Positions 9,931 through 35,893 of a stretch of DNA of 35,893 nucleotides are shown piece by piece. The DNA comes from Candidatus Sulfotelmatobacter sp. (GTDB lineage Bacteria; Acidobacteriota; Terriglobia; Terriglobales; Acidobacteriaceae), in assembly GCA_049512555.1 (NCBI GenBank), contig JBEKWZ010000001.1, positions 1 to 35,893 on the forward strand. The letters are read 5' to 3'. The notes beneath the pieces were generated by a model. The model had not been told where the DNA came from and searched no databases. It saw nothing but the letters and a program-made list of their open reading frames with translations. Position 1 is the first letter of the stretch, and each line of letters opens with the position of its first letter. The translations under genes were made by a program, and so were the position numbers.

Positions 9931-12723
9931 ATGAAACGCGCCAATCGATCAGCCAAACTGTGGGCTGCTGCCTTTGTGTTTTCCTTCGTCGCTTTCAATT
10001 CTCAATCTGGCGTATGTCAATCGTCTGCCCAGCGAGCCCAGTCTTTGGACGAGCGTCTACCCCTGCTCTTCGAACAAAACGTAGGACAGACAAAATCTCA
10101 AGTGCAGTACCTGGCCCGCTCAGGACGATACCAGGTCTATTTGCTCCACAACGGGGCTGTGCTGAAGGTCGCTGGCAAGGAGCGCAACGCCGTGGTCCGG
10201 ACGACCCTGCGCAAGGCAAACGAGAACGCTCCGGTTGACGGCGTAGAGCCACAGTCCGCCAAGACAAACTATCTGCTCGGCCCTAGCACTGCCTGGAAGA
10301 CAGGCGTCGCGAACTTCGCTGCCGTGAAGTATGAGGGAGTGTACCCGGGAATCAATCTCAAGTATTACAGCCGGCAGCAACAACTGGAATATGACTTCGA
10401 CGTCGCACCACTAGCCGATCCATCCACGATCTCGCTAAATATCGAGGGCGCAGACAAAATCACAATGGACAAAGATGGCGCGCTGGTGCTGAAGACAGTA
10501 GCGGGAAATGTGCGTTGGCTGAAGCCATTGGCGTATCAGCAATCGGAAACCGGCCGTCAGCCCGTCGCCGCCGCGTACCGCATCCACGGAAATCACGTCA
10601 GCTTCAAGCTTGGAGCTTACGACCGAGCAAAGTCTCTGGTCATTGATCCAGCCATGGTCTACGGAACGTTTCTCGACGGAAGCACCGCTGATCGCTACAC
10701 CGGCTTTCTGGTTGACTCCGCCGGCTTCGCCTACATTGTCGGCTATACCTTATCCTCCGACTTCCCGGTCACTCCTGGCGCCTACCAGAATTTTCACACG
10801 CAGAATTACGAGGCTTTCGTTTCCAAGTTAAGCCAGGATGGCTCGTACCTTCTCTGGTCGACGATGGTTGGAGGTACGGGGCCTAACACTGGATCGTCGC
10901 CGGGCGGCTTCGCGTTAGACCCCACCGGAAACGTGTACATTGTCGGGGTAACCGGCGACTATACCGTCAACAATAACAGCGGGGCTCTGATTCCCTCCGT
11001 TTCCACATTTCCTACAAGCGCAGGCGCGTACAACCGCACGGAGCTCGCCGGCTGGCGTGAGTTCCTGGTGAAACTGAACAGTACGGGCAGCGCTTTGGAC
11101 TTCTCGACTTTCCTGAGCGACCAACCCAACATCATTCCTTTCGCGGTGGCCGTCGATTCCGCGAGCAATGTATATGTGACCGGAGAATACAACCATGCCA
11201 GCGGCCTTGTCGCCCCGTTCCCGGCTACATCCGGCGCTTACCAATCGACCTACGGGGGCGACAACGACGCTTTCGTCATGAAGTTCAATTCGACGGGAAC
11301 CACGTTGGACTATGCCACACTCGTCGGCGGCGAATACGACGACATTGCCTACCAGATCATGGTGGATTCCGCCGGAAACGCAACCATCGATGGCCCCACC
11401 TACTCCCCTGATTACCCCATCACCTCGAACGGCCTCAGGCAAGCCAGCAACGCCGGGGGCTTCATCACTACATTGAATACCACCGGCACCGGGCTGATTT
11501 ATTCCACCGTGCTCAACGATGTGGCGAACATCAAAGTAAAGCGCGATGCTGCTGGCTACTACTATGCCGGAGGTTCGGCGGGCCTGAACTTGCCAACCAC
11601 AAAAACCGCTTTCCAGCGAACTTTTCCCAGTACTGCAACTCAAACCCACCAGGGTTTTCTTACCGAAATCGACCCGTCCGGGAATCTGGTCTATTCGTCT
11701 TATCTGGGCGGCAAGGTAGCCTCTCCGACGTCGGAGGACACACAGATTCTGCTCGTATCACCCAATAGCGTGGTCGTTGGCGGCGATCGCTCTTCTGACT
11801 CTACGTTCCCGGTGACCGATCGCAGCTACGAGCAGGACGCTTGCTCTTTTCTCGCCAAGTTCAACACCCAGGCTTCGGGCGCCGCTTCGCTGCTGTACTC
11901 AGGATGTACGCCCGTGAACGGGACCAACAACATCACCGTGAACCTGTTCCGGGGTGTCGGATATTTCTCTGACTCGCAACTCTATATCGACGCCGACGAC
12001 AACCTCTACGCCATCAATGAGAACGGCCCCGCGTCCTCCAACGCTTTTCAGAAAGCTCCGCCGAGTCTGGGCTCGGGCGACGGCTCTTATGTCTGGTTCG
12101 GAAAGTACAATCTTGGCCAGCCCGGCAGCGGAGGCGTGAATTTAAGCGCTCCTGCTCTGGTGTACTCATACCCCTACGGAAACCCTGTCACGTTCCGAGC
12201 CACGGGACGAAGTCCACAATGCTCCGCCGGTGTAGCCGCGATGCGCGTCTATACCGCGCCCGGTGTGGCCGCTTATACCACGTTAGGCGCTACTCTTGAT
12301 GCCAATATTTATTTTCCCGTTACCGGTTCAGACATTCTGCAGTTCAACGCTGTGATTGTGGTTTACGACAATTGTGGGAAAGCGTTTTCGTTAACCGTCC
12401 CTGTCCTGGTCCAGGCATCTACCGTAACCCCTCCCACTCCAGTCGTGGTTTCACCGGCCGACGGATCGAATTCCTACGGCGGGCCGATTGGCGCAGTCAC
12501 TTCGCCCGTTCATTTCGTTGCCAGTGCCACCGCGCCCACCTGCAGTCAGGGCATCTCTGCCATGCGCATCTATACCGCGCCTGGGGTCGCAGCCTACACC
12601 GTGAGTGGCGCTTCGCTCGACACTTACCTGAGCCTGACGCCTGGTACCTACAATGTTGTCGTGCAAGCTTGGGATAAATGCGGAGGCGTGTACAAAACAC
12701 CGCTGACGGTGACGGTCGAGTAG
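9931..12723 (+). CDS. Secreted SBBP-type beta-propeller repeat protein with two C-terminal Ig-like domains
   Basis: The ATG at 9931 follows AGGAGGA and gives a signal peptide (MKRANRSAKLWAAAFVFSFVAFNSQSGVCQ). A blade motif recurs: YEAFVSKLSQDGS, REFLVKLNSTGS, NDAFVMKFNSTGT, GGFITTLNTTGT, QGFLTEIDPSGN, CSFLAKFNTQAS. The C-terminal ~100-aa module is duplicated. Confidence 0.88.
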   Translation: MKRANRSAKLWAAAFVFSFVAFNSQSGVCQSSAQRAQSLDERLPLLFEQNVGQTKSQVQYLARSGRYQVYLLHNGAVLKVAGKERNAVVRTTLRKANENAPVDGVEPQSAKTNYLLGPSTAWKTGVANFAAVKYEGVYPGINLKYYSRQQQLEYDFDVAPLADPSTISLNIEGADKITMDKDGALVLKTVAGNVRWLKPLAYQQSETGRQPVAAAYRIHGNHVSFKLGAYDRAKSLVIDPAMVYGTFLDGSTADRYTGFLVDSAGFAYIVGYTLSSDFPVTPGAYQNFHTQNYEAFVSKLSQDGSYLLWSTMVGGTGPNTGSSPGGFALDPTGNVYIVGVTGDYTVNNNSGALIPSVSTFPTSAGAYNRTELAGWREFLVKLNSTGSALDFSTFLSDQPNIIPFAVAVDSASNVYVTGEYNHASGLVAPFPATSGAYQSTYGGDNDAFVMKFNSTGTTLDYATLVGGEYDDIAYQIMVDSAGNATIDGPTYSPDYPITSNGLRQASNAGGFITTLNTTGTGLIYSTVLNDVANIKVKRDAAGYYYAGGSAGLNLPTTKTAFQRTFPSTATQTHQGFLTEIDPSGNLVYSSYLGGKVASPTSEDTQILLVSPNSVVVGGDRSSDSTFPVTDRSYEQDACSFLAKFNTQASGAASLLYSGCTPVNGTNNITVNLFRGVGYFSDSQLYIDADDNLYAINENGPASSNAFQKAPPSLGSGDGSYVWFGKYNLGQPGSGGVNLSAPALVYSYPYGNPVTFRATGRSPQCSAGVAAMRVYTAPGVAAYTTLGATLDANIYFPVTGSDILQFNAVIVVYDNCGKAFSLTVPVLVQASTVTPPTPVVVSPADGSNSYGGPIGAVTSPVHFVASATAPTCSQGISAMRIYTAPGVAAYTVSGASLDTYLSLTPGTYNVVVQAWDKCGGVYKTPLTVTVE

Positions 12724-12775
12724 TTGCTAGGCACAGTCTTCGATTCACGATTCGCGCGGCGGTTTGATTGAAGTC

Positions 12776-12982
12776 CTAAGAGTGCTTCAGTTTGACGTGG
12801 ACGCGAAACGCGTTATCGAGCAGTTCATTGGTTTCCGATCGCGTATTCTGTGTATCGGTCACCGCCTTTTCGACACAGATGATCTCACGGCACTCAGAGC
12901 ATCTGCCGAAGCGATGACTGGCGCGATCCATTTCGTCCCTCGGTCCAAGCCAACCCGCGTCGGTCAACTCTGGTTTCTTCAT
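12776..12982 (-). CDS. Possible small CxxC protein (68 aa)
   Basis: An internal ATG gives MKKPELTDAGWLGPRDEMDRASHRFGRCSECREIICVEK.... The RBS is weak. It competes with a 99-aa plus-strand ORF (12764-13063), and neither is convincing. Confidence 0.25.
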   Translation of the reverse strand: MKKPELTDAGWLGPRDEMDRASHRFGRCSECREIICVEKAVTDTQNTRSETNELLDNAFRVHVKLKHS

Positions 12983-13276
12983 GCCCCAGTTTCCCACAGG
13001 CCGGACGGCTTGGCTAGCCCTGCGAGTCTGGTGAACGCGTGTGTGCGCCAACAGTCTTTCTGATTGTGGCCACAGTTCCCAGCATTCACTCTTGAAACGG
13101 TCAGCACCGGGAATGTTTGACTTTCGATCACACCGGTGCAATCATTGTTTCGTCGAGCGCGGACCAAGTTGTTCCCCGCAGAATTGCCGTTGCTCTCCCT
13201 TTCTTGCGCATCTCTTCATCCTTTTCATACGACATTGCCTTCCGCGCATTTCGGAACTCTTAAAAGGGGACCGACC

Positions 13277-13948
13277 ATGAAACCCGGGGTTGCGGTCAAG
13301 AAACTCAGCAAATTCGATACCAAGACATTCCTTTCAACCATCGACGGCGGCAGGAAACTCTTAGCTTTTCCCAAGAAACGGACAGTCTTCGCTCAGGGCG
13401 ACTCGTCCGATGCTGTTTTCTATGTACAGAAAGGGAAAGTAAGACTTACGGTTATCTCGAAGACCGGAAATGAAGCCACGATCGGCATCCTGAACGAGGG
13501 CGAATTTTTCGGAGAAGGTTGCCTTGCCGGGCAGCCTCTCCGCCTCTGCTCGGCAACCGCAATGACCGATTGCTCCATAATGCGAATCGATAAGAAGTCC
13601 ATGATGGAAGTGCTTCACGGGGAACACGCGTTTTCCGATATGTTCGTGGCATATCTGTTGAGCCGGAATATCCGATACGAGGAGGATTTGGTTGACCAGC
13701 TTTTCAATTCCAGTGAAAAAAGACTGGCCCGAATGTTGCTACTGTTGGCTCACTTCGGCAAGGACGGAAAGCCCGAATCTGTGATCCCCAAGATCACTCA
13801 GCAGACCCTCGCAGAGATGATCGGCACAACTCGCTCACGGGTAAGCTATTTCATGAACAGGTTCAGGAAATTGGGGTTCGTTGACTATCGCGCCGGCGAT
13901 GTCTTACAGGTTCACAGTTCTCTTCTCAACGTCGTTCTCCACGACTAG
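13277..13948 (+). CDS. Crp/Fnr-family transcriptional regulator
   Basis: cNMP-binding-type fold (FAQGDSSDAVFYVQKGKVRLTV...GEGEFFGEGCL) plus a C-terminal HTH (QQTLAEMIGTTRSRVSYFMNRFRKLGFVDY). It has no N-terminal Cys cluster, so it is not an FNR-type O2 sensor. The ATG at 13277 is preferred over the track start at 13136. Confidence 0.9.
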   Translation: MKPGVAVKKLSKFDTKTFLSTIDGGRKLLAFPKKRTVFAQGDSSDAVFYVQKGKVRLTVISKTGNEATIGILNEGEFFGEGCLAGQPLRLCSATAMTDCSIMRIDKKSMMEVLHGEHAFSDMFVAYLLSRNIRYEEDLVDQLFNSSEKRLARMLLLLAHFGKDGKPESVIPKITQQTLAEMIGTTRSRVSYFMNRFRKLGFVDYRAGDVLQVHSSLLNVVLHD

Positions 13949-14254
13949 AGACTCCACCGCTGCGAAGTGTGCCGTTAATCTCATCTGCTCCCTCTCGGCT
14001 TCGCCATTTCCTTGATGAGTTCGACAAGGGTCGTTCCTGGCCGAATGTTTCTTGGTTTCGTTTACCCCTGATGCCCACAATGTCACGAGCCGACCACAGG
14101 TCAATGTGGACCAAAGACCAGCACGCTACGTTCTGGCGTGTTATAGTGGCCGCCGGGGTGGTTACCACCTTCTCCTCTTTCAGGTCTTCTGACCTAAGCC
14201 AGTCCATCTGAAGTTCTCCCCCCTTAGGTGTTTTAGCGAGAGAGCGATGTGCCC

Positions 14255-16771: not shown

Positions 16772-17914
16772 TCAGAATGCGTAACGCAGTGACTCGGTTA
16801 ACGAGTTGGCGTGAAAATAGCGTGGCGCTGTCGGGCCGACGAACGAACCCTCACCGTACTGGTAATAATTCCAGCCCATGTTGTAAGCCCACTTATGGCC
16901 AATATCCACACTCAGATTGGCCACCGGTTGCTGGTACTTGTATTGCAATGTGCCGAGAGGTTGCAGAATGTTGAACTGCGGAACGTTGCCGTCAACGCTG
17001 GTGATGCTGTAGCCGACGTTAGCCAGCACTCGCTTCGTTGGTCTGAACCTGACGGTGGTCATTCCGAAATTGGTGTGGTTGGTGTAGTACGAATTGGCCA
17101 TCAAGTTATTGGCCGTATCGTTCCCGGCACAATTGTTGTTGACGGCATTGGCCACGAAGGGAAGAATCACTCCGGCTGGCGGGGTGTCGTTGAAACAGAT
17201 CAGAGCATTCTGGATCACGCTGTTGAAGTTGTACGCCAGGTCTATGCCGAAGCGTTCGCGCGGCGCGAGCGACGCGGTCAGTCCGTAGTTCTGGTTGTGG
17301 CCCGCGTACTGGGTCTGTGCGTCAGCGTTGGATCGTTGCAGGATGTTGATCGACCCGCCCAGGGTCGCCCAAGAGCGCGGCGTGTAGGTCGTCTGAAACC
17401 GGTAGCGGGATTCCTTGCGTGGGGACAGTCGAACGAACACACTGTTGAAGTTTGTGTGCTCCAGATCGACATTCAGTCGCAAGGTATGAGTGGGCCGCGC
17501 CCAGAGCTCGAGCAGCGCGGTTTTCTCCAGGCCCACAAAATGGTCCTCGTCTCCGGGCAGAAAATCATTGAAGTGGTTGAAGTCCCGGTCGCCATAGCGG
17601 TAGCCGATCCTCGCCCCGGCTTTTTTCGAAAAGTCCCAGGCCAGTTCGGTCTGATTTCTCGTCCAGGTCTGGTTGAAGGACGACTGCGCTATGGTAGGCG
17701 TCCCTCCTGGAGTTATGGGCGTAGTAAGCGCTGCACTCAGCAGCGAGCACGGCGGCGCTGCGCAGCTATAGTCGAGTTCGTTGAGATTGCCATTCTGTGG
17801 AATGCGATACGCCCAGAAATAGAATTTCTCGATCAGCAGCCGGGCCCGTGCACAATCAGTCTGCGAAGTATCAAGCCTGCACCATGTGTCATACGCAGAT
17901 TCATGGCTCCAATT
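16772..17914 (-). pseudogene. 5'-truncated outer-membrane beta-barrel protein gene
   Basis: The frame is open for 380 codons, but the first ATG/GTG/TTG is the GTG at 17536. The 126 start-less codons upstream (manual translation ...ELAWDFSKKAGARIGYRYGDRDFNHFNDFLPGDEDHF) continue the same beta-strand-like sequence. Stops close the frame at 17915-17917 and again 4 codons further up. There is no signal peptide. The C-terminus ...NSLTESLRYAF ends in the aromatic residue typical of OM beta-barrels. Confidence 0.6.
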
Positions 17915-17980
17915 TCAGCAATGTGTTTTTCAAATAGGAGTATCGATGGAGCCGCCGCCAAAACTCGTCCGAGTCTCGCA

Positions 17981-18103
17981 ATGTTTGCCAGTAGTGAGAC
18001 GGGCGTCCCTTCCGGCGGTTTGGTGCAATGCAGCGACTGCCACAACCCGCACGGCACGGGAACCGTGCGGCAGCTACGGAGCCTGCCCAGTGGTGACGCA
18101 TAA
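17981..18103 (+). pseudogene. Terminal fragment of a multihaem c-type cytochrome gene
   Basis: The last ~40 codons of the long plus-strand shadow ORF read MFASSETGVPSGGLVQCSDCHNPHGTGTVRQLRSLPSGDA-stop. CxxCHNPHG is a motif typical of multihaem cytochromes. Everything upstream in this frame is antisense to the beta-barrel gene, so only a 3' remnant can be genuine. Confidence 0.45.
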
Positions 18104-18230: not shown

Positions 18231-19421
18231 TCACTGCCGTTCCGCGGTAAAGAAACCTTCATACGTCGAGGGCAGGTAGATATATCCACCAGGGGTGACC
18301 TCTGACGTGGCGACATTGAACCCATAGATCATCAGCTGATCGGTGGAGTATTCGGAAGCGACTCCGTAGACCAGCGTTCCATCCGGGCTGAATTGGGTGA
18401 CCCAATAGGGAACGTAGTTGGAGGAGTCAACGATCTTCTTCTGAGACAATTCGACTTTATCGATCTGGGTCAGGTCGGAGGCGATTGCCATGAAGACGTA
18501 TTTACCCGAGGGATGAGCGAGGCCGGCAGAGGACCCGCAGGCTTCCAACATATCAGCCGTGCACGTCAGCAACGGAGTGCTGGTAGAAGGCACGACAGGA
18601 TAGATATTCACGCTATCGTAACCCTGTGCATAGTCGAATGGGACCACAAAGTCAAACAGTCGGTTGGCCGCGAACTGAACGGATTCATAGCCGCCCGAAT
18701 TTCCATTCTGCCAGCTATACACCTCGACATCGTCACCCAGGGCTCCGCTTGTGAGATTGACCGTGCGCTCGTTGTAACTTGCGATTGTGCCGTGTGCGCT
18801 ACATTGCACTTCATCGTAAAGACTGGTGCCGCTGGCCTTGAAGCCGAGGAGAGATAGTCCACAGAAAGCTGTGCCCTCGGCTCCGTTGCCGAGCGCATAC
18901 GTCGCCTCGAGTTGCGGTTGGTTGAGCTTCCCGGAAGCCGGATTAATCAAATAGCGGCGGATATACCACGGGGTGTTGTAGGAGTCATCGGTATTCACCC
19001 CTTCGAAGACCGCGTAGACAAAGTTAGCTTTCGGATCAACCTGCAGGCCGTTAAAATTTTTCACATTGAATTGCTGAACCACCGGAAGCTGGGGCGAGCC
19101 GGTTGAGTCCGTGGCAAAAACCCAAAGGCGCTGCTGGGTTTGGGAAACGTAGCCGATGTAATAAATGAAGTGGTCGTTCGGGGCGGCAATCAGCCAAGGA
19201 ATCACATCTGGATTGAATACGGCGTTGGGCACTGTGACGGAGCCGACTTGAGTGGGATTTAGAGTCTGAGGGTCTACGTTGTAGGTGACGATGGTTGTTG
19301 ACTCAACCAGGTATACGACTTGAACAGGGGTGGGCGAGGTTTGCGCAACGGCCGAGGAGTTTTGGGCAGAGCTGAGAGTGCCCAGGCAAAGAAGCATGCA
19401 GCAGACGCATGGACGGAACAT
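18231..19421 (-). CDS. Secreted beta-propeller-like hypothetical protein
   Basis: GGAGG lies 5 nt upstream of the ATG. It has a signal peptide (MFRPCVCCMLLCLGTLSSAQ) and recurrent blade-like motifs (HFIYYIGY, NFVYAVFEG, KYVFMAIA, GTLVYGVA). No family was assigned. Confidence 0.75.
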   Translation of the reverse strand: MFRPCVCCMLLCLGTLSSAQNSSAVAQTSPTPVQVVYLVESTTIVTYNVDPQTLNPTQVGSVTVPNAVFNPDVIPWLIAAPNDHFIYYIGYVSQTQQRLWVFATDSTGSPQLPVVQQFNVKNFNGLQVDPKANFVYAVFEGVNTDDSYNTPWYIRRYLINPASGKLNQPQLEATYALGNGAEGTAFCGLSLLGFKASGTSLYDEVQCSAHGTIASYNERTVNLTSGALGDDVEVYSWQNGNSGGYESVQFAANRLFDFVVPFDYAQGYDSVNIYPVVPSTSTPLLTCTADMLEACGSSAGLAHPSGKYVFMAIASDLTQIDKVELSQKKIVDSSNYVPYWVTQFSPDGTLVYGVASEYSTDQLMIYGFNVATSEVTPGGYIYLPSTYEGFFTAERQ

Positions 19422-27894: not shown

Positions 27895-27902
27895 GTGGCG
27901 CT

Positions 27903-27932
27903 CCATGCCTGGTCGACCCATGCCTGGTCGAC
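27903..27932. repeat. Perfect 15-bp tandem duplication (CCATGCCTGGTCGAC x2)
   Basis: Read directly: 27903-27917 and 27918-27932 are identical. On the minus strand each unit carries an ATG in frame with the GH51 gene. Confidence 0.95.
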
Positions 27933-28032
27933 CACCAGAATAAATGTTCTGCGGCTCGCCGGATAGGTACGCGGAACGATAGTAAATGTCAGTTGACGAA
28001 GAACCCTACTTACAACAACGATGTCTAGCGTC

Positions 28033-28053
28033 GGAGAAGCGCGCACCTTCTCC
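28033..28053 (-). terminator. Hairpin downstream of the dynamin-like operon (weak terminator candidate)
   Basis: GGAGAAG-CGCGCAC-CTTCTCC, a 7-bp stem with a 7-nt loop, about 210 nt downstream of the 28263 stop. The T-tract is on the plus-strand side only. Confidence 0.3.
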
Positions 28054-28262
28054 TTTCAGGGGAGCAGAGTCTTGCAGAACGAATCTTGATCCACTTCTCT
28101 TTCCAGCGGATCGTTGAGGCGGTTCGATTCAGTGACCAACCGCTTCAGAAAGTTCATATCATGGCTGGGGAGTACTCGAGCTCTGATTTCCGTCGAGCGC
28201 CGCCAATGGCCACCCATCGTTCCAGACAAGCGTAGAAATCTGCAGGACGGTTTGTGTTTCTG

Positions 28263-30038
28263 CTAGACGCAACTACGGAGCTCCACTACCTGACCTTCCA
28301 AGGTAGCTATTCTCTCCCGTGCAGCATCGACCGCCGCGGCTCCCTCGTGCCGTATTCGTCTGGCATTCCTGAGGGCCTGTTCCGCCACGCGACTGACCTC
28401 ATGCAGGAGTTTGCGAATCTCAACCTCCAGATGCCCATGGCTCTCTTGAATGCGGCTCAGGATGTCGCTCTGTACGCGCGTGCTGTTGACTTCGAGCAGT
28501 GTGACTAGGAATTCTCGTACGTCGTTCTTAATCAAGAACAGAGCACCGATGAAACTCAGGAAGACGTCAGCCAGCCACCGCAGAGGTGAGACAGGCTGCG
28601 CAACCTGGATGAAATCGGCGAAAGTGAAGGTCGAAGGAACACGAAAGCCGACTTCCGGGTCGAGCGCGTGCGGCATGCGCGCGAGCTCGGGAACACCTCC
28701 CTCAGCAAGCTTCTTCAGGAAATTATTACCGATCTCAACGAACCGAGGTGAGACTCTGCGGTACTGCTGCTCCGCTTCCTCCTGCTCGGGTCTCAACCAC
28801 GGAGTCACATAACGTTTGGCGATCTCTTGGGCCTGCTTCATCAGTCGGCGACGATAGCGAGGGCCGAGCGCATAGGGGCAGGACGAAATTGCTTCTTCAA
28901 GCTCCGTCCTCGCTCCCGGCAATGCTCTTGCGAGAAATGCCTTATGCCGATCGACAAACATATCGGAAATGTGTCGCTGCTCCGCCATGAATAGAAACCT
29001 CAGTTCTCGCATCGATCGTTCAGCTTCTGCGATCGTCATCTTCATGGTCGCAATTCGCCGCTCCGACTCCTCAATGGGCCGCAGCAGTGCTTCCCGCTCT
29101 TCACCTATCACTGCCAGCAGTTGCTCGCTGAGTCGTCCGATCCCCCGCTCACAGGCCGAATAGATCAGCCTCCGCCCAGATTGCTCAAGCAGCCCGTCAA
29201 GAACACTAACCAGCTTTTGCCAATCACGTTCTGGCCCATGATTATCGATTCGTTCCGTCGCACTCACCTCTAAAATCAGCCCGAGGCCTCGCTGCAGTTT
29301 CTTCCGCACTTGACGGTCCGTGAAATCCATGGCAGCGATCTTTTCTTCAGGGGTTGTCCGATCTGCCTTGTTAAGAACCAGAACAATATCCTGGACGTGC
29401 TGCGCTACGGCTTCGACGAGGTCGAGCTCTTCTCCAGCCAGCGGTGGATCGGCACCGATCACGACCATGGCCGCATCGATATGGGGTATGAATGCATGCG
29501 TTGCCGCCGTATTGCCGGTGAATACTGAGCCGAGGCCGGGAGTATCGACGAAGCACATCCCGCCCGCCAATAGGGGGCTCGGCATAAAAACCTCTACGCC
29601 CCGAATTCCCTTCGAGTTCTCAGGGTTATTCTCTTCCGATACGTACTGATTGAGATCGCAGACGGACACGTCTTGCCAGGAACCATTTGCCGCTTGTATT
29701 CGCGCCTTTCTCTGATCCCCGAACCTTATTACGGTCGGAACTGCGGTCACCGGAGTGAAGCCAACGGGAAGGACAGCGTCGCCAATCAGAGCGTTGATCA
29801 GCGTGGACTTGCCGCGTTTGAATTGACCAACACACGCGACATAGAAACGGCCCTCGGCGATCCGGTTAGCTAGATCCCTCGCCTCCTCAGCGATTCGACT
29901 CGAACCTAATTCCTCGGCAAGTTCGGCGAGACAACGAAGCCTCGAGGCACCGTCAACGTCACTCGTCACAGTAGGTACCGACGGGGGATATTCTTGGGCG
30001 CTAACCGCCATTGACGAATTGTCTTCTCTCTTCGTCAT
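28263..30038 (-). CDS. Bacterial dynamin-like GTPase (DLP-2)
   Basis: G1 GQFKRGKST (aa 71-79), G3 FVDTPGLGSV, G4 VLNKADRT. A long helical stalk follows, with a hydrophobic segment WLADVFLSFIGALFLI near the C-terminus. The ATG lies 6 nt after the stop of the DUF190 gene. Confidence 0.88.
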   Translation of the reverse strand: MTKREDNSSMAVSAQEYPPSVPTVTSDVDGASRLRCLAELAEELGSSRIAEEARDLANRIAEGRFYVACVGQFKRGKSTLINALIGDAVLPVGFTPVTAVPTVIRFGDQRKARIQAANGSWQDVSVCDLNQYVSEENNPENSKGIRGVEVFMPSPLLAGGMCFVDTPGLGSVFTGNTAATHAFIPHIDAAMVVIGADPPLAGEELDLVEAVAQHVQDIVLVLNKADRTTPEEKIAAMDFTDRQVRKKLQRGLGLILEVSATERIDNHGPERDWQKLVSVLDGLLEQSGRRLIYSACERGIGRLSEQLLAVIGEEREALLRPIEESERRIATMKMTIAEAERSMRELRFLFMAEQRHISDMFVDRHKAFLARALPGARTELEEAISSCPYALGPRYRRRLMKQAQEIAKRYVTPWLRPEQEEAEQQYRRVSPRFVEIGNNFLKKLAEGGVPELARMPHALDPEVGFRVPSTFTFADFIQVAQPVSPLRWLADVFLSFIGALFLIKNDVREFLVTLLEVNSTRVQSDILSRIQESHGHLEVEIRKLLHEVSRVAEQALRNARRIRHEGAAAVDAARERIATLEGQVVELRSCV

Positions 30039-30044
30039 GACCGA

Positions 30045-30395
30045 TCATGCGGAAGAACGAGTGCCCTCTTGATGCACGTACTTAATCACTTCCACATCGG
30101 ACATGGCGATCAAGCCCTCGTCCACCATCAAATCCAGGGCGGGCAACAGCTTGTTGATCTTTTCGTGAGTGTCCACGACCGAAACCATGATTGGCCGGTC
30201 GGAGGACTTGAGGAGGTGAGCACGGTGAATCAGCGTGCTAGCTCCGTATCCTTCAATTCCGCGGTAGACCGTCGCTCCCGCGAGATCCAGTTCTCGGCAT
30301 TTCTCGACGATCGCCTCGTAAAGAGGCTTGCCATGCCACTTGTCGTCTTCTCCGAAATGAATGCGAAGCATTTTGGCCTTGCCTTCGAGTTTCAT
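30045..30395 (-). CDS. DUF190 (UPF0166, PII-like fold) protein
   Basis: 116 aa. MLRIHFGEDDKWHGKPLYEAIVEKCRELDLAGATVYRGIEGYG...MVSVVDTHEKI matches the DUF190 pattern (two beta-alpha-beta halves). AGGAG lies 9 nt upstream of the ATG. Confidence 0.8.
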   Translation of the reverse strand: MKLEGKAKMLRIHFGEDDKWHGKPLYEAIVEKCRELDLAGATVYRGIEGYGASTLIHRAHLLKSSDRPIMVSVVDTHEKINKLLPALDLMVDEGLIAMSDVEVIKYVHQEGTRSSA

Positions 30396-30493
30396 GCCCG
30401 TGTCTCCTGACGGCGTTCCGTGGTTTCGTAATCGTGGCTGTCTATTCCTTTCTCTATCGCAGATTGTCTCCTCGTCGCACTTCGGCGACTTTC

Positions 30494-32545
30494 TTAGGAC
30501 GCTGCTTCTATAACTTCGCGTTCTCTCTGCAAGGCGCCGAGACTCTTGCGGATCGCCTGTTCTTGTTCGCTCGACAGCTCGTGAGGACCGGCCAATCGCT
30601 CCAACTGGGCGCGATAGCCATTCGCGTAGGCATCGAATCGGCGTCGAATCTGACTGATCATCCTATCGCCCCAAGCCTCGACGAGTTGCCGATATGCGTG
30701 GAGGGCCCGCACAATATGTGGCCCTACTGATCTCGCCAGCTTCCTGGCGGTCCACTTCTTGGCGAAGCCTTGTCCCAGGAGGAAGGCCATCCTCGGACGA
30801 TTAACGATCAAAGTCACTGTTCCGAAATCGAGTACTGGCATTTCACGCAGAAAACTGGAAAACTCGCCATCGCCCGGCATGTCGGCCTGCTTCAGTACCT
30901 CTGCGGCTGATCGCAAACTCTGGTGAAGTTCGCTCCCAAGAGCCGCGAGAATGTCCCGCAGCTGAGCGCTTTTCTCTTGAACGGTTGCGTTCACCGTATC
31001 GAGAACAACCCGTTGCGCGTCGATTTCCTGGCCGCCACGTTTCCAAGACTCCACCAAAGCGGCCGCGGCTTTCCATAGGGCTGGTGAACCAAGGTCGGCG
31101 ATTTCACTCCCAATCCGCCTCAGGCTTGAGTTGGCCTCCTGCAGTTTCCCGCTGGCCTGTCGGAGCCTGGCCTCGACACTACGAATCTGCTCTTCATCTA
31201 TTTCGGGATTCTCTCTCTTCGGCCGCAACCGCACTTTGAGAGCAGCCTCCACCGATTGCTGCAAAGCTCCAACCTTCCGCCGGATCGAACGTACCTTCAA
31301 TTCCTGCCGCCGGTTGTAAAGCGGGCCAATATCGTTCTCAAACCAATCGTTCAATAGATTCCTTGCGCTCGGCACCGCACTGACAGGGTGTACCTGTATC
31401 TCCAGGTTGAGTTCCGAACGGATGTGATCCTTCACATACTCGATCACTTGGCCACGATCTTCGGCAGACAGGAGATCAGCTTTGCTCAACAAAACGTTCG
31501 CTGGAATACCGGCCTCATACAGAGTTTGCACAGTCCTCAGGTCATCAGGCGTGAGCGTGGAACCCGCGTCAATGAGCACGACGCCTAGATCGCAGCGGGG
31601 CAGATAAGCCAGTGTCTCCGCCGCCCCACGAGTCGCCAACGACCCTAGCCCTGGAGTGTCCACAAAGGCTATTCCATCTCGCAATCGGGGTGCTGACATT
31701 TGCAGGACGACCCGAGTGACGTGTTTTTCATTGCCCGGATTGCCCTGCTCTGCGACAAACTCCGCCAACCGCGAAATCTCAAACTGTTCGGGCGCGCGAT
31801 TCGCACACCAAACGTTGACAGCCGCAGTCTCGCCATAAACGATTCGCGTGGGAACGGCTGTAATCGGAACAACGCCAACTGGCAGCACATCGGTTCCGAG
31901 GGTTGCATTCAGGAGTGAGGACTTGCCGGAGCTCACTCGCCCGAAGATGGCAATTTCGAAACTCTTGTCCTCAAGCCGGTCGAGAATCATGGAGAGGATC
32001 GACCGGAATTCCACCAATCCCTGATCGGTGATGATAGCTTCAAGTCTCCTGAGCAGAGCTACCTCGTCTCCAGCTTGCTCCAACCGGAGCAGGCGATCTT
32101 GCAGATTCTCGCCTGCTCCGCGTGTGATGTACTGATCCAACTGATTGCTAAGGCTGAGTAGTTCGGCGGCAATCCCATTGAGCTCGATGGCCGCCGCAGG
32201 TGGGATCTCTCCATAGCCGCGCATGTATTTCGGCTGCAACTCCTCAGCGGCAATCGCAACAAATGTCAGAACCGTATGAAGCGATCGGCTGACTGGAATG
32301 GAAGCTCCGGGACGTTCGATGCCCTGGCCGTCGAGAACGCGAATTAACTGAGCTCGGATGCGGGCAATATGGTCTTCGATCACTCGTCTTTGCGCTGGTG
32401 TGATGTCGAGCAAGTACTCGGGAAATGCCTTCTTGGAGTCAGACACGCGGAGCGCGCTCTCCATATCACCCAGGAGTTTATCGATGTGCCGACAAGTTAC
32501 CGACAGGCGCCGAGCGTGGTTCGAGTTGAGAGACTCCTCCGGCAT
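30494..32545 (-). CDS. Bacterial dynamin-like GTPase (DLP-1) with ~200-aa N-terminal helical extension
   Basis: G1 GRVSSGKSS, G3 FVDTPGLGSL, G4 LLSKADLL, followed by a long helical C-terminal stalk. The ATG at 32545 (GGAG 5 nt upstream) is preferred over the GTG at 32560. Confidence 0.88.
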   Translation of the reverse strand: MPEESLNSNHARRLSVTCRHIDKLLGDMESALRVSDSKKAFPEYLLDITPAQRRVIEDHIARIRAQLIRVLDGQGIERPGASIPVSRSLHTVLTFVAIAAEELQPKYMRGYGEIPPAAAIELNGIAAELLSLSNQLDQYITRGAGENLQDRLLRLEQAGDEVALLRRLEAIITDQGLVEFRSILSMILDRLEDKSFEIAIFGRVSSGKSSLLNATLGTDVLPVGVVPITAVPTRIVYGETAAVNVWCANRAPEQFEISRLAEFVAEQGNPGNEKHVTRVVLQMSAPRLRDGIAFVDTPGLGSLATRGAAETLAYLPRCDLGVVLIDAGSTLTPDDLRTVQTLYEAGIPANVLLSKADLLSAEDRGQVIEYVKDHIRSELNLEIQVHPVSAVPSARNLLNDWFENDIGPLYNRRQELKVRSIRRKVGALQQSVEAALKVRLRPKRENPEIDEEQIRSVEARLRQASGKLQEANSSLRRIGSEIADLGSPALWKAAAALVESWKRGGQEIDAQRVVLDTVNATVQEKSAQLRDILAALGSELHQSLRSAAEVLKQADMPGDGEFSSFLREMPVLDFGTVTLIVNRPRMAFLLGQGFAKKWTARKLARSVGPHIVRALHAYRQLVEAWGDRMISQIRRRFDAYANGYRAQLERLAGPHELSSEQEQAIRKSLGALQREREVIEAAS

Positions 32546-32791
32546 AAAGCTCCAGCGCACGCAGAGACACGCATCCCGCGCCTAAATTTGTACTCAGCTA
32601 TTTCAGGAATCTCTTGGGATCAGAAGATGGAGGGGAAAACGCTGAACAATTAGCCCCTACCAAGAGAATTCCTTCTTCTTCGTAGGAGTCATCTGCCCAG
32701 TGCGGGCGGTTAAAGGTGAACTCCAACACCCAGTGAAATTATGACAACCCAGGAAGGCGAAGTCAATGGTCGCCCCGGACCGTAGCGAAGA

Positions 32792-33535
32792 TTAGCGGCT
32801 TCGAACAGCAGGTGCCCCGTTCATGCGGAAGTCGATGTAGAGAGGCGAAATTTTTATGTGTTGGTTCGTTCGATATTTCGGATATTTGGCCATCTGAAGC
32901 ATTGAGAGAATCGCCCCTGGATTCCCTTCGCTAAACTCAAGCACTTTCCCGAGGAATTCCTTCATATTGGAAGCTGCCAATCCAGCCCGTTCCACTATTT
33001 CGTTGGAGAACTGCTGTGCAGTGGCTGAGTCGAAGTTCTTCACTTCGCACCTGTCATGCCGATCCGAATACAACGGTTGCAGAAATCCGGTGTCTTCCAT
33101 GTGGTGTGAACGAGCAACCGCGATGACAGGAGTGGAGCACCATCCCATGACCTCGCGAACGGCCGCGGCAAAGGTTTGCGATGGACGATCTAGGTGATCC
33201 AGCACAATCGAGTAGCCACCTTCCCGCAGGGCATCCATCACAACGCCCTTGAGCGAAACGGCAGATTTTGCCTGGACGCCGTCTAGGGTGTGGCAAGCTC
33301 GTCGGACGCGCGGATTGCCGCGCTCCAACAGAGCTTGCGCCACGCTGCGAAAAACCACTTGAGTGCTGGCTGACCTCGGGCAATAGAGAACCGCGGGCAT
33401 CTTCTCCAACACGCTACAAAGAATGAGCGTCTTACCCACTCCAGTTGGCCCATGCAACAGAAAAGACTTGTTTCTCGCAAGACGCTGTGCAAGCGCCTTC
33501 GACTCTTCCGTACGGTTGAAAATGAAGTTCTCCAT
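32792..33535 (-). CDS. Small AAA+/ORC-Cdc6-like P-loop ATPase
   Basis: Walker A LLHGPTGVGKT, Walker B-like YSIVLDHLD, and a lid-like helical C-terminus with FSEGNPGAILSML (compare the GNP motif of ORC/STAND-type lids). 247 aa with no other domain. Confidence 0.75.
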   Translation of the reverse strand: MENFIFNRTEESKALAQRLARNKSFLLHGPTGVGKTLILCSVLEKMPAVLYCPRSASTQVVFRSVAQALLERGNPRVRRACHTLDGVQAKSAVSLKGVVMDALREGGYSIVLDHLDRPSQTFAAAVREVMGWCSTPVIAVARSHHMEDTGFLQPLYSDRHDRCEVKNFDSATAQQFSNEIVERAGLAASNMKEFLGKVLEFSEGNPGAILSMLQMAKYPKYRTNQHIKISPLYIDFRMNGAPAVRSR

Positions 33536-33557
33536 CGCTCAAGTCGCCAGATCAAAC

Positions 33558-33596
33558 GGCGCGGCGATCGCGCATATTCCGCAATATCGCCGCGCC
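33558..33596 (-). terminator. GC-rich hairpin between the Usp gene and the AAA+ ATPase gene
   Basis: Perfect 11-bp inverted repeat GGCGCGGCGAT (33558-33568) / ATCGCCGCGCC (33586-33596) with a 17-nt loop. On the minus strand it is followed by GTTTGATCT. It lies 163 nt after the Usp stop and 23 nt before the ATPase ATG. Confidence 0.5.
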
Positions 33597-33758
33597 GGCC
33601 CCCTCAATGTGTTGCCAGCTCGTCCAGCCCATTTGGCGTGAGCAGCCCGGGTATACTCAAGTGACATCGGCCATCTTTGCGTAATCATAATTGCGGTGCG
33701 GTTCCGAAATAATCGCAAATCTTCACAAGCTTCATTAACACTGGCAACGGCGGCCTAT

Positions 33759-34199
33759 TCAGTGCACGACCATCACGGGGCAATGGGCATACCTCAAAAC
33801 GCGCTCCGAGACCGAACCTAACATCATTCGGGAGATCATTGATCGTCCGCGCCGTCCCACGATAATCAGGTCAATGCCGTCCGCCTCGGCCCGATGGATG
33901 ATCTGCTCGCCGGGATGCCCTACTGCCATGTCGGTCTTTACATCCAGGTCATGGGCTCGCGCCTTTTCAAGGATCTTCTTGAATCCTTCTTGATAGTGCT
34001 CCTTCGCATCGTCCAGCACAGCCTCCAGTTCAACCGATGTTGGAGGCTCCGGGGGGCGGGCAACCGCGAAGACCAGGACGGTCGAATCGATGCAATCGGC
34101 AAGGGACAGTGCGACCTCCACAGCCTTCTCCGACTGCGGAGATCCGTCATATCCCACCAACAAATGTCGAAAATGCGCATTCTGTCTTTTACCAGTCAT
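33759..34199 (-). CDS. Universal stress protein (UspA family)
   Basis: LLVGYDGSPQSEKAVEVAL..., IIVGRRGRSMISRMMLGSVSERVLRYAHCPVMVVH (ATP-binding G-2x-G-9x-GS motif). Its ATG overlaps the TGA of the antiporter gene (ATGA). Confidence 0.92.
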   Translation of the reverse strand: MTGKRQNAHFRHLLVGYDGSPQSEKAVEVALSLADCIDSTVLVFAVARPPEPPTSVELEAVLDDAKEHYQEGFKKILEKARAHDLDVKTDMAVGHPGEQIIHRAEADGIDLIIVGRRGRSMISRMMLGSVSERVLRYAHCPVMVVH

Positions 34200-35410
34200 G
34201 GAGTTTCTCCCTCAGCGCTTAGGGTGACTGCATGGGAAATCGTAGTGTCTTCTTTTTTGGACTTCGACAGCAGGTGCCTGGGCATAAACCAGGCATTGGC
34301 GATCATGGTAGGAATCACTGCACTGCCAATCACGGTGGCCACCAAATGCGAATACTGCGCTTGATCAATAATGCCGTGGTTCAAGCCAAAAAGCGCAGAA
34401 ATAGTTCCAAAGGTGAGGCCGGTGGACATCATCAATGTGAAGTACAAACCTTCCTCACGCTGATAGTTGAATGCTTTTACTGTGGGGAACAGTCCGACCA
34501 TCTTGGAGATCATCTTCGCAAAAAACAGCGCCACGAACACTAGCGGAGCGGCCCTCAGGGCTGGCACCGAAACAAACGATCCGGCCCGGATGAAATAGAA
34601 CGGTGTCAGCAGACCGAACGTGAGGGTACGGAGTCGCCGGATCAAAACGTGGTCTTTGCCAACCGTTCCCGCCAACACCATTCCTATGATGTATGCGGGC
34701 AAGACTGCTTCGCTGCCGGACCACACCGCCAATCCACCCATTGCGAACAGGACGAATAGCAGGTATTTGGCTTCAAGCTCGGAAACCCGCCCTCCATAAA
34801 ACTTGAAGAACCACGGAGTGAGGAACGGTAAAACCGAGAAGATGGCTACGCTTGCGACCACGAAGATCAAAGTTCTAACGGTGAACGGGGAGAAGATGAG
34901 GCCGAGCGCGATTACAGTTCCCAGGTCGTTTATAAAGCAGGCGGCCAGAATGGCCTTGCCAAAGTCTGTGACGTTGAAACCGAGTTCCAACATCACCGCG
35001 TAAACCACAGCCACTGACGTTGTCGACAGAGCAACGCCGGCCAGCCAACTCGATCGGGTTGTCCAATGCAGCACGTAATGGGCGACAGCCGTGCAGCCCA
35101 GGAACGGGCCCACGAACCCCACCAGGCCGATAACCGTTGACTCTTTCCACTTGGTTCGGAATATCTTGGGATCGAGTTCAGCGCCAGCCAAGAACGTGAG
35201 CACGATTGCCCCGGTTCCGGCGAGGAAACTGATCCATTCACTCTTGGCGGCGAGACCGCCCTGCACGATGAAAGCGCCAAAGATGAGCTGGGCAACCGTG
35301 CCCACAACAATCTCTGTGAGCGCTGTAGAAATCTTGAACCAAATGGCGAGAAGAGTCGCCACCAGGGCCAAGCCGACCCACAGAGAAGCAAGAACCCAGA
35401 CGTTCTGCAT
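34196..35410 (-). CDS. Cation:proton antiporter (CPA2/Kef-NapA type, no RCK domain)
   Basis: The ATG at 35410 follows GAGG with 7-nt spacing. There are about 12 TM helices. The N-terminus LALVATLLAIWFKISTALTEIVVGTVAQ and the AGAELD motif are typical of Na+/H+ exchanger family proteins. Confidence 0.88.
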   Translation of the reverse strand: MQNVWVLASLWVGLALVATLLAIWFKISTALTEIVVGTVAQLIFGAFIVQGGLAAKSEWISFLAGTGAIVLTFLAGAELDPKIFRTKWKESTVIGLVGFVGPFLGCTAVAHYVLHWTTRSSWLAGVALSTTSVAVVYAVMLELGFNVTDFGKAILAACFINDLGTVIALGLIFSPFTVRTLIFVVASVAIFSVLPFLTPWFFKFYGGRVSELEAKYLLFVLFAMGGLAVWSGSEAVLPAYIIGMVLAGTVGKDHVLIRRLRTLTFGLLTPFYFIRAGSFVSVPALRAAPLVFVALFFAKMISKMVGLFPTVKAFNYQREEGLYFTLMMSTGLTFGTISALFGLNHGIIDQAQYSHLVATVIGSAVIPTMIANAWFMPRHLLSKSKKEDTTISHAVTLSAEGETP

Positions 35411-35626
35411 AGCACACCTCGACTTCTGAAGTTTGCAGCGGATTCTTGCCGGTACCATGACTCCGCGACAAGGCCCGCTTGTCAGGAGTCATCAGCTGTT
35501 CCCGGCTCAAAGATAGGACAGCGGTTGGCGGTGAACTCCTTCACCGTTTACTGCTCAATACCTATGATGCTTTCCGAACACCGCTAGAGTCAAGCGCTTA
35601 GAAGTCGTTCGAACACAATTGGAAAT

Positions 35627-35672
35627 TGGCGGGAGCGACGGGACTCGAACCCGCGGCCTGCGGCGGGACAGG
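35627..35672 (-). other. tRNA 3'-half-like fragment (T-arm + acceptor 3' strand + CCA), possible att-site remnant
   Basis: The minus strand reads CCTGTCCCGCCGCAGGCC-GCGGG-TTCGAGT-CCCGT-CGCTCCC-G-CCA. That is a canonical T stem-loop, a 7-nt acceptor strand, discriminator G and CCA. The complementary 5' acceptor strand (GGGAGCG) and the D and anticodon arms are absent from the following ~260 nt up to the window edge. Confidence 0.55.
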
Positions 35673-35893
35673 CAATGGCAGTGGAGCACAAAAGCGGAGC
35701 ACAATAACTGCCGAATGAGAGCCCTTGAGCCCGACTTGGAGTTCACGGGCTGATCTTCCGTCATGTCTAGTAAATAACTTGTGTTTCTAGTAAACTAGCG
35801 GTTTTCCTTTTGGGGACGCCGGCTGAGAAACCGTGGGCTGATTCTCGCGTGCAGACATGCAACGGGAGCCTCGCCCAAGTCTTTTCAGCGCCA

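Follow-up and report, generated by a model that had tools for sequence, protein, structure and literature searches.

The 35,893-nucleotide (nt) stretch of DNA from Candidatus Sulfotelmatobacter sp. (Acidobacteriota, Terriglobia) considered here (the window) carries on its minus strand three co-directional genes, which encode the dynamin-like protein (DLP) DLP1, a small PII-like protein of the DUF190 family, and a second dynamin-like protein, DLP2. We read these genes as the distal transcription unit of a fluoride-response island whose two GTPases would be effectors against fluoride stress, and assign this reading a probability of about 60%. A riboswitch of the fluoride class heads the unit, and DLP1, DUF190 and DLP2 would therefore belong to the fluoride-stress response; judged from sequence, riboswitch control and membership of the DLPs in the fluoride regulon are very likely, and the regulatory and comparative evidence pointing to them is strong. 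A preliminary description of this DNA had placed the three genes correctly, with their lengths and spacings, and had presented them as a possible membrane-remodelling or defence module; two fluoride riboswitches and a deletion scar in the 98-nt gap between DLP1 and DUF190 were absent from it.

The DLP1 leader and the two fluoride riboswitches

The DLP1 leader, between the stop codon of an upstream ATPase gene (32792) and the DLP1 ATG (32545), contains an RF01734 aptamer that is almost identical to the Rfam consensus and lies 130 nt upstream of DLP1; the same riboswitch is found upstream of DLP1 in relatives. The sigma-70-like promoter that adjoins it is the best such site in positions 27900-35893, with 10 of 12 matches, and its CATAAT element is invariant in 11 related leaders. 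In the minimum free energy (MFE) fold of the leader, a conserved hairpin (CUCCUACGAAGA...UCUCUUGGUAGGGG, hairpin A) with a U-rich tract behind it shares bases with the aptamer's 3' pseudoknot strand (CUCCUAC) and is a putative terminator of an ON switch. A second pairing (UCUCUUGG with CCAAGAGA, pairing B; columns 81-88 and 131-138 of alignment A4) excludes hairpin A; 95.5% of its cells pair, and one pair is changed on both sides. The competition between pairing B and the terminator-like hairpin suggests a three-state expression platform. The folding z-score of the DLP1 leader as a whole was unremarkable. Terminators often overlap the crcB motif, and ligand binding is expected to raise expression (PMC2864571); because of this class behavior, and because the same leader drives crcB in relatives, the switch is predicted to work in the ON direction.

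Under the preferred reading, transcription would start from the promoter-like site at 32766-32738 and run into the leader that holds the riboswitch. When cytoplasmic fluoride rises, as it may in acid peat where hydrogen fluoride (HF) diffuses into the cell (entry by weak-acid accumulation; PMC11139923), the fluoride-bound aptamer would keep the CUCCUAC strand, the terminator-like hairpin would be blocked, and transcription would proceed into the three genes.

A second RF01734 riboswitch heads the genes upstream of this unit (32792..35458), which encode a Na+/H+ exchanger, a universal stress protein (USP) and a 247-amino-acid (aa) P-loop ATPase, here called AAA247; the same trio occurs in relatives. 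This second unit and the DLP operon make up an island of ~7.3 kb with two riboswitches. AAA247 lies in many genomes directly behind a riboswitch of its own, or immediately before or after DLP2 (locus L067, 5218-6221; locus L019, 11728-12734, minus strand), and it seems to be a so far unstudied component of the fluoride regulon. The coordinates of all features are collected in Table 1.

Table 1. Features of the fluoride-response island and the DLP operon in window coordinates
Feature	Position	Strand	Description
DLP1	30494..32545	-	683 aa from the ATG at 32545; N-terminal helical domain, GTPase of the bacterial dynamin-like protein (BDLP) type, helical stalk
DUF190 protein	30045..30395	-	116 aa; PII-like, COG1993
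DLP2	28263..30038	-	591 aa; full-length BDLP: G domain, helical neck and trunk, hydrophobic tip at about residues 485-503
Fluoride riboswitch aptamer, DLP1 leader	32676..32739	-	RF01734; 48.2 bits against a gathering score of 34; model positions 1-64
Sigma-70-like promoter	32738..32766	-	TTGACT-17 nt-CATAAT, extended TG; ends at the first base of the riboswitch
Hairpin A and U-rich tract	32654..32688	-	MFE fold; putative terminator of an ON switch
Pairing B	32610..32667	-	Excludes hairpin A
Deletion scar	30396..30493	-	30442-30493, gap downstream of DLP1; 30396-30441, 3' end of the lost tandem-DUF190 gene
Second fluoride riboswitch	35476..35554	-	RF01734; 42.6 bits against 34; model positions 1-64; just upstream of the Na+/H+ exchanger gene
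Promoter-like site of second riboswitch	35564-35593	-	TTGACT-18-CATCAT
Na+/H+ exchanger gene	34196-35458	-	Pfam
USP gene	33759-34199	-	Pfam
AAA247 gene	32792-33535	-	247-aa P-loop ATPase; weak AAA_16/STAND-like Pfam matches only

Gene order in relatives and origin of the compact layout

Gene order around DLP2 was compared by scanning one genome per species, which yielded at least 575 confirmed DLP2 loci; 80 loci from Terriglobia were kept, and counts out of 80 refer to these. The names attached to the DLP2 matches were Terracidiphilus, Sulfotelmatobacter and Terriglobales. With phmmer, every gene of the window and the additional genes of locus L055 were traced to their homologues, and riboswitches were mapped by Rfam on seven loci and by a covariance model built from 16 Rfam-confirmed copies, which gave 127 matches in 1.5 Mb. 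Going upstream from DLP2 through co-directional genes, a riboswitch on the same strand was reached in 61/80 loci, and of the remaining loci most are truncated by a contig end. The commonest string consists of a riboswitch, DLP1, crcB, a gene for a Cys-rich protein, a tandem DUF190-DUF190 gene, a single DUF190 gene and DLP2, and it is often preceded by a riboswitch followed by the Na+/H+ exchanger, USP and AAA247 genes. Its CrcB matches PF02537 at 1.8e-29, and the position of DLP1 is sometimes filled by the N-terminal helical domain of DLP1 (N-domain) alone. The Cys-rich protein of 204 aa, encoded between crcB and the tandem DUF190 gene (L055 8169-8783), has two CxxC...CxxH-like motif pairs and no Pfam match. 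The ancestral unit would have had this same order, perhaps with the Cys-rich gene as a variable member. Among cultured bacteria, Acidicapsa dinghuensis 4GSKX (L022) carries the whole string, and in this locus (9989-13951), as in L025, DLP2 is followed by a second DUF190 gene and a further DLP gene (DLP3).

In the window, the genes between DLP1 and DUF190 are missing, and we have little doubt, from DNA alignments, that the compact layout arose by a recent ~1.2-kb deletion in which crcB and the tandem DUF190 gene were lost. The full-length proteins most similar to DLP1 (83% and 78% identity) are encoded in canonical operons with crcB and tandem DUF190 behind the same riboswitch. At the DNA level, window 33556..30445 is collinear with L091 7008..10110 and stops 9 nt before the L091 crcB start, and collinearity resumes between window 30436..30064 and L091 11277..11650; the equivalent of L091 10111-11276, comprising crcB and the tandem DUF190 gene up to its final ~45 nt, is absent from the window. 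Upstream of the DUF190 ATG, 46 nt from the 3' end of that tandem gene persist. The deletion junction is mapped, and the order DLP1-DUF190-DLP2 would be a recent derivative and not a conserved architecture. It is nevertheless a real arrangement and not a misassembly, because the same three-gene layout recurs in at least nine independent assemblies (metagenomes or metagenome-assembled genomes, MAGs).

A contig from the same study (L088, 876..3075) is 99.6% identical to window 30441..28242 over 2.2 kb covering DUF190 and DLP2, and encodes an identical DUF190 protein. The homologous segment extends from 46 nt before the DUF190 ATG to 21 nt past the DLP2 stop, and in L088 it follows a tandem DUF190 gene and the final part of a Cys-rich gene. 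That one segment occurs in two different flanking contexts suggests that strains or loci have recently recombined or that a duplication has taken place between them.

These comparisons bear directly on the view that the operon is a DLP pair with an embedded PII-like subunit. The element directly upstream of DLP2 is a DUF190 gene in 47 of the 80 loci, a riboswitch in 10, AAA247 in seven and the N-domain in six. The DUF190-DLP2 linkage is thus conserved, but within the crcB operon; the compact DLP pair around DUF190 that the preliminary description had envisaged is not ancestral. In relatives, the DLP genes are separated by crcB, the Cys-rich gene, tandem DUF190 and DUF190, which places DUF190 in an ordinary crcB context. 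On this evidence of gene order, the DUF190 gene is part of the usual crcB/fluoride setting and not an ancestral component of a DLP pair; the canonical operons and the mapped deletion together rule out an ancestral insertion of DUF190 into such a pair. A self-contained heterotypic DLP pair with a PII-like ligand sensor, acting independently of fluoride in membrane remodelling or, in the manner of Eleos/LeoABC, against phages, is accordingly improbable. It would fit the position of DUF190 before DLP2 and, in L022 and L025, before another DLP, the retention of DUF190 and DLP2 together through the deletion, and weak PADLOC matches to LeoA (1.9e-10 and 3.2e-12). It does not fit the riboswitch at the head of the operon, the ancestral presence of crcB and two to three other genes between the DLPs, or the loci in which DLP2 follows a riboswitch directly without DUF190 (e.g., L024, L057 and L049) or with AAA247 in between. 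Anti-phage defence in particular was rejected, as the LeoA matches are generic and partial, the match to LeoBC is confined to ~40 residues at the P-loop, and genes of phages, mobile elements or defence systems were not found among the annotated genes of the window, whose remaining genes, assigned by Pfam (hydrogenase, NrfD, ferredoxin, Crp, MFS, Nramp and arabinofuranosidase), are those of an ordinary chromosome.

The same gene order raises the question of whether the DLPs, DUF190, the N-domain and the Cys-rich protein are accessory machinery that assembles, clusters or gates the Fluc (CrcB) channel, so that those of the window would be functionless leftovers or would serve a crcB encoded elsewhere. 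No match to crcB was obtained anywhere in the window with phmmer and an acidobacterial CrcB query, and the adjacency of crcB and DUF190 seen in relatives is absent here through the loss of that copy. A role of this kind is distinctly unlikely. It accords with the location of crcB between DLP1 and DLP2 in most canonical operons, with DUF190 being a classic neighbour of crcB, and with crcB being the commonest first gene behind the riboswitch; it is at odds with units without crcB in which the riboswitch is followed by DLP2, or by the N-domain and then DLP2, and with the open reading frames (ORFs) of the window operon, which are intact and nearly identical in the nine or more assemblies. Fluc channels, moreover, function alone in vitro.

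A second sample was anchored on the riboswitch itself. A consensus riboswitch pattern gave 86 matches on metagenome contigs, a set biased toward soil and peat and toward consensus-like aptamers. Downstream sequence of 2.5 kb or more was available for 38 of these riboswitches; in 15 of the 38, a DLP gene follows on the same strand within 7 kb. The first gene after the riboswitch (n=75) encodes CrcB in 35 cases, a Na+/H+ exchanger in 15 and the N-domain in seven. Genes for crcB, the Na+/H+ exchanger, enolase and metallophosphoesterase share these metagenome strings, and across relatives and metagenomes the riboswitch-headed strings contain established fluoride-resistance genes, namely those for CrcB, the Na+/H+ exchanger, enolase, USP and DUF190. 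In the literature, no genes accompany fluoride riboswitches more often than those for fluoride exporters and Na+/H+ antiporters (PMC11139923). Enolase, metallophosphoesterase and MFS transporter genes are also interleaved with DLP genes in riboswitch-headed strings of L093 (1-7800), L094, L061 (820-2751) and L026 (9026-9931), and L061 has the order riboswitch, DUF190, enolase, DLP2.

Furthermore, six loci have a riboswitch dedicated to a third paralogue, DLPx (Dynamin_N, 2.3e-22). Its C-terminal domain (cf. L019 12895-14580, minus strand) is homologous to the Cys-rich protein by profile-profile comparison (hhalign probability 96%, E 2.4e-9), while BLASTP between the two was not significant. 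Fusions join DLPs to other proteins of the operon: the N-domain with DLP1, and the Cys-rich domain with DLPx. The idea that the DLP genes merely hitch-hike, unrelated in function to fluoride, in an island rich in riboswitches is very improbable in view of these fusions, of the several DLP paralogues with riboswitches of their own and of the frequency of DLPs at riboswitch-anchored loci, even though the island varies in its gene order and some homologues have no riboswitch.

The encoded proteins and the proposed role of the GTPases

Both large proteins are bacterial dynamin-like GTPases, as had been proposed. Dynamin_N (PF00350) was matched by DLP1 at 1.6e-21 and by DLP2 at 5.9e-26, and the G1, G3 and G4 motifs can be read in both translations (GRVSSGKSS, DTPG and SKAD in DLP1; GQFKRGKST, DTPG and NKAD in DLP2). 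The two proteins are 34% identical across 192 aa of the G domain, with nothing significant outside it, in agreement with the strong divergence noted previously. In a sequence search against the Protein Data Bank (PDB), the nearest structures to both were IniA (6J72), Campylobacter jejuni DLP1/DLP2 (5OWV) and Nostoc BDLP (2J68), with mitofusins next; DLP1 matched IniA at 9.4e-16 in a comparison of sequence only. The AlphaFold2 (AF2) model of DLP2 (predicted local distance difference test score, pLDDT, 75) consists of a G domain followed by long helical bundles, and Foldseek aligned it with IniA (6.7e-17), BDLP (6.3e-16) and C. jejuni DLP1/2 across ~600 columns of alignment, with values ranging to 1e-13. 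By this model, DLP2 has the BDLP fold, with a helical neck and trunk after the G domain. The hydrophobic, paddle-like segment of DLP2 that had been pointed out (WLADVFLSFIGALFLI, residues 485-503) is present and lies at the expected tip of the trunk, a part of the model that is poorly predicted.

The helical stretch described before the DLP1 P-loop was also recovered, with ~185 residues predicted to be helical. Within it, the N-domain (residues 1 to ~165; window 32051-32545, minus strand) was modelled by AF2 as confidently helical (pLDDT 83). It had neither a Pfam match nor a fold match in the PDB (best E 0.2, template-modelling score, TM, <0.31), and on these grounds it is assigned no function. 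A profile search with the N-domain found 1237 cluster representatives at E<=1e-3, in which the domain is always N-terminal and the proteins fall into two length classes of ~150-200 aa and ~670-710 aa. In many loci a stand-alone N-domain gene lies directly behind the riboswitch (e.g., L004 7952-8383), and in L016 and L072 the N-domain is apparently fused to a DLP2-type GTPase.

The middle protein is of the DUF190 type, as originally described: it matches PF02641/DUF190 at 5.2e-35 over profile positions 1-97 of 97, and is homologous to PH1503 (2DCL, 8.5e-25) and TM0021 (1O51, 3.5e-21) in the PDB. Its gene lies beside that of a candidate effector, a DLP GTPase.

How the GTPases would act can be proposed by analogy with the stress-induced IniA/IniC and DynA: the DLPs may maintain or remodel the cytoplasmic membrane, driven by GTP, under fluoride or acid stress, with the DLP1 N-domain, the Cys-rich domain and the PII-like DUF190 as possible partners or regulators. 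That the DLPs protect or reorganise the cytoplasmic membrane under such stress is a tentative proposal, to which we give somewhat less than even odds. More speculatively, the DLPs, the N-domain, the Cys-rich protein, AAA247 and DUF190 might form an unrecognised acidobacterial machine for membrane fluoride stress, in which DUF190, acting as a sensor of fluoride, of a metal-fluoride complex or of a nucleotide, would govern DLP GTPase activity; this would be a second line of defence beside Fluc, operating here without a co-encoded one, and we regard it as doubtful.

Several observations weigh against the reading of the operon as a fluoride-response unit with DLP effectors. Fluoride binding, induction by fluoride and co-transcription of the three genes are predictions from sequence, and the ON direction is argued from analogy and from the crcB genes behind the same leader. 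Hairpin A pairs in 95% of cells across the 11 related leaders with no covariation, and the leader thus offers two mutually exclusive, conserved hairpins with almost no covariation; because the leader sequences are too conserved, covariation is uninformative for either. The DLP sequences do not tell how the proteins act on membranes, and the hydrophobic tip of DLP2 was modelled at low confidence, with pLDDT <50 in the adjoining residues 466-484. As the operon of the window lacks crcB, its DLPs could be relics if they depended on the channel. Finally, the closest species-level homologue of DLP2 (L001, 9911-11770; 81% identity) is solitary among metabolic genes, with no riboswitch, DUF190 or DLP1 nearby. 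The MAG that contains it also holds a full riboswitch-controlled operon (L041), which indicates that riboswitch-free and riboswitch-controlled DLP2 paralogues both exist.

Such a riboswitch-free paralogue would be expected if the operon supplied extra or fluoride-tolerant DLPs to replace copies trapped by metal-fluoride analogues of the transition state (AlFx, BeFx or MgFx), as riboswitch-controlled enolase and pyrophosphatase genes do for their enzymes. GDP-AlF4-/BeF3- locks the G domains of mitofusin and dynamin, which lends this compensation or decoy function some plausibility, as do the enolase and metallophosphoesterase genes in the same riboswitch-headed strings. Fluoride-inhibited enzymes are, in addition, typical members of the regulon (PMC11139923, PMC5533749). 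Compensation leaves unexplained the N-domain and Cys-rich fusions and the tight linkage to DUF190, however, and the DLP2 of the window is nearer to the riboswitch-free L001 protein (81%) than to riboswitch-controlled copies (76%), so that housekeeping and inducible copies do not separate cleanly into clades. We consider it unlikely.

Some details of the locus concern annotation. The start of DLP2 is ambiguous (30011-30038): the ATG at 30038 gives 591 aa and a 6-nt gap to DUF190, whereas the ATG at 30011, nine codons downstream and chosen by some gene callers, gives 582 aa and a gap of 33 nt. For DLP1, an alternative GTG start at 32560 would add 5 aa; homologues use the ATG at 32545. No terminator was evident 3' of DLP2. 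Elsewhere in the window, the ORFs at 2289-4025 (minus strand), 16811-18103 (plus strand) and 18231-19421 (minus strand), of 578, 430 and 396 aa, have no Pfam match at E<=1e-5; since ORF 16811-18103 overlaps an antisense ORF, some of the three may not be genes.

Comparison with known systems

The riboswitch class, the BDLPs and DUF190 are each known; their combination looks new, being undescribed in the searchable literature. The words 'dynamin' and 'GTPase' do not occur in a 2024 review of fluoride resistance (PMC11139923) or in a 2020 review of formerly orphan riboswitches (PMC7266159), and neither review names the N-domain, the Cys-rich protein or the P-loop ATPase. The 2010 description of the crcB motif names other genes. 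A literature search, which did not cover Baker et al. 2012 and its supplement, found no paper with both a fluoride riboswitch and dynamin, and searches on DUF190 and fluoride, on bacterial dynamin and fluoride, and on the fluoride riboswitch and Acidobacteria found nothing relevant.

To our knowledge, clear inducing signals are rare for bacterial dynamin-like proteins, and their physiological roles are largely unsettled. A specific and chemically simple inducer, fluoride acting through an RNA switch, would make DLP function directly testable, and the cultured A. dinghuensis could serve as an experimental system for the link. The fluoride regulon would gain abundant but little-studied families, namely the DLPs, the N-domain, the Cys-rich protein and AAA247. 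The arrangement also suggests that fluoride or acid stress harms the membrane, or that fluoride export needs membrane organisation, among the acid-soil bacteria dominating peatlands.

Among systems built on dynamin-like GTPases, C. jejuni DLP1/DLP2 (5OWV/5OXF) and Nostoc BDLP (2J68) share with the window proteins the BDLP/mitofusin G domain and the helical neck and trunk, and the C. jejuni proteins are likewise two diverged paralogues encoded together. Identity to these proteins is 14-19%, however, the DLP1 of the window has the additional N-domain of ~165 aa, and the DLP genes of the window type are ancestrally non-adjacent and have a fluoride riboswitch as their regulatory input. The idea of a stress-induced DLP is shared with mycobacterial IniBAC, whose IniA is the best match of solved structure for both GTPases. 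The Ini system belongs to another phylum, IniA is ~18% identical, and the ini operon is induced through a protein regulator that responds to cell-wall inhibitors, not through an RNA switch. An IniB-like gene was not seen among the annotated neighbours, though no search was aimed at IniB. Eleos (LeoA/LeoBC) has dynamin-family GTPases in common with the window, with partial hidden Markov model matches to LeoA; the LeoBC matches are local (E 2.4e-4 and 1.2e-3), and in contrast to Eleos the window has a riboswitch, fluoride-gene and housekeeping neighbours, and no defence island.

In pairs of crcB and DUF190, and in the actinomycete fluorinase clusters that contain flJ (DUF190; PMC9173684), DUF190 is again tied to fluoride, and it follows crcB in the relatives of the window; unlike such pairs, these operons line up as many as three DUF190 domains, the last of them directly before a DLP, and the window has lost its crcB. 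The closest likeness in regulation is to the resistance operons governed by fluoride riboswitches, which combine crcB/Fluc or CLC-F with Na+/H+ antiporter, enolase, pyrophosphatase and USP genes, as in the Enterobacter cloacae FRM operon with the order ppaC-uspA-eno-gpmA-crcB (PMC5533749). Like these, the window has an RF01734 leader with a promoter-like site directly 5' of it, and a Na+/H+ exchanger and USP behind its second riboswitch, and its relatives also have crcB, DUF190, enolase and metallophosphoesterase genes. Unlike these, the unit in the window carries two dynamin-like GTPases as its cargo with no exporter gene, and the relatives add the helical N-domain, the Cys-rich protein and the P-loop ATPase.

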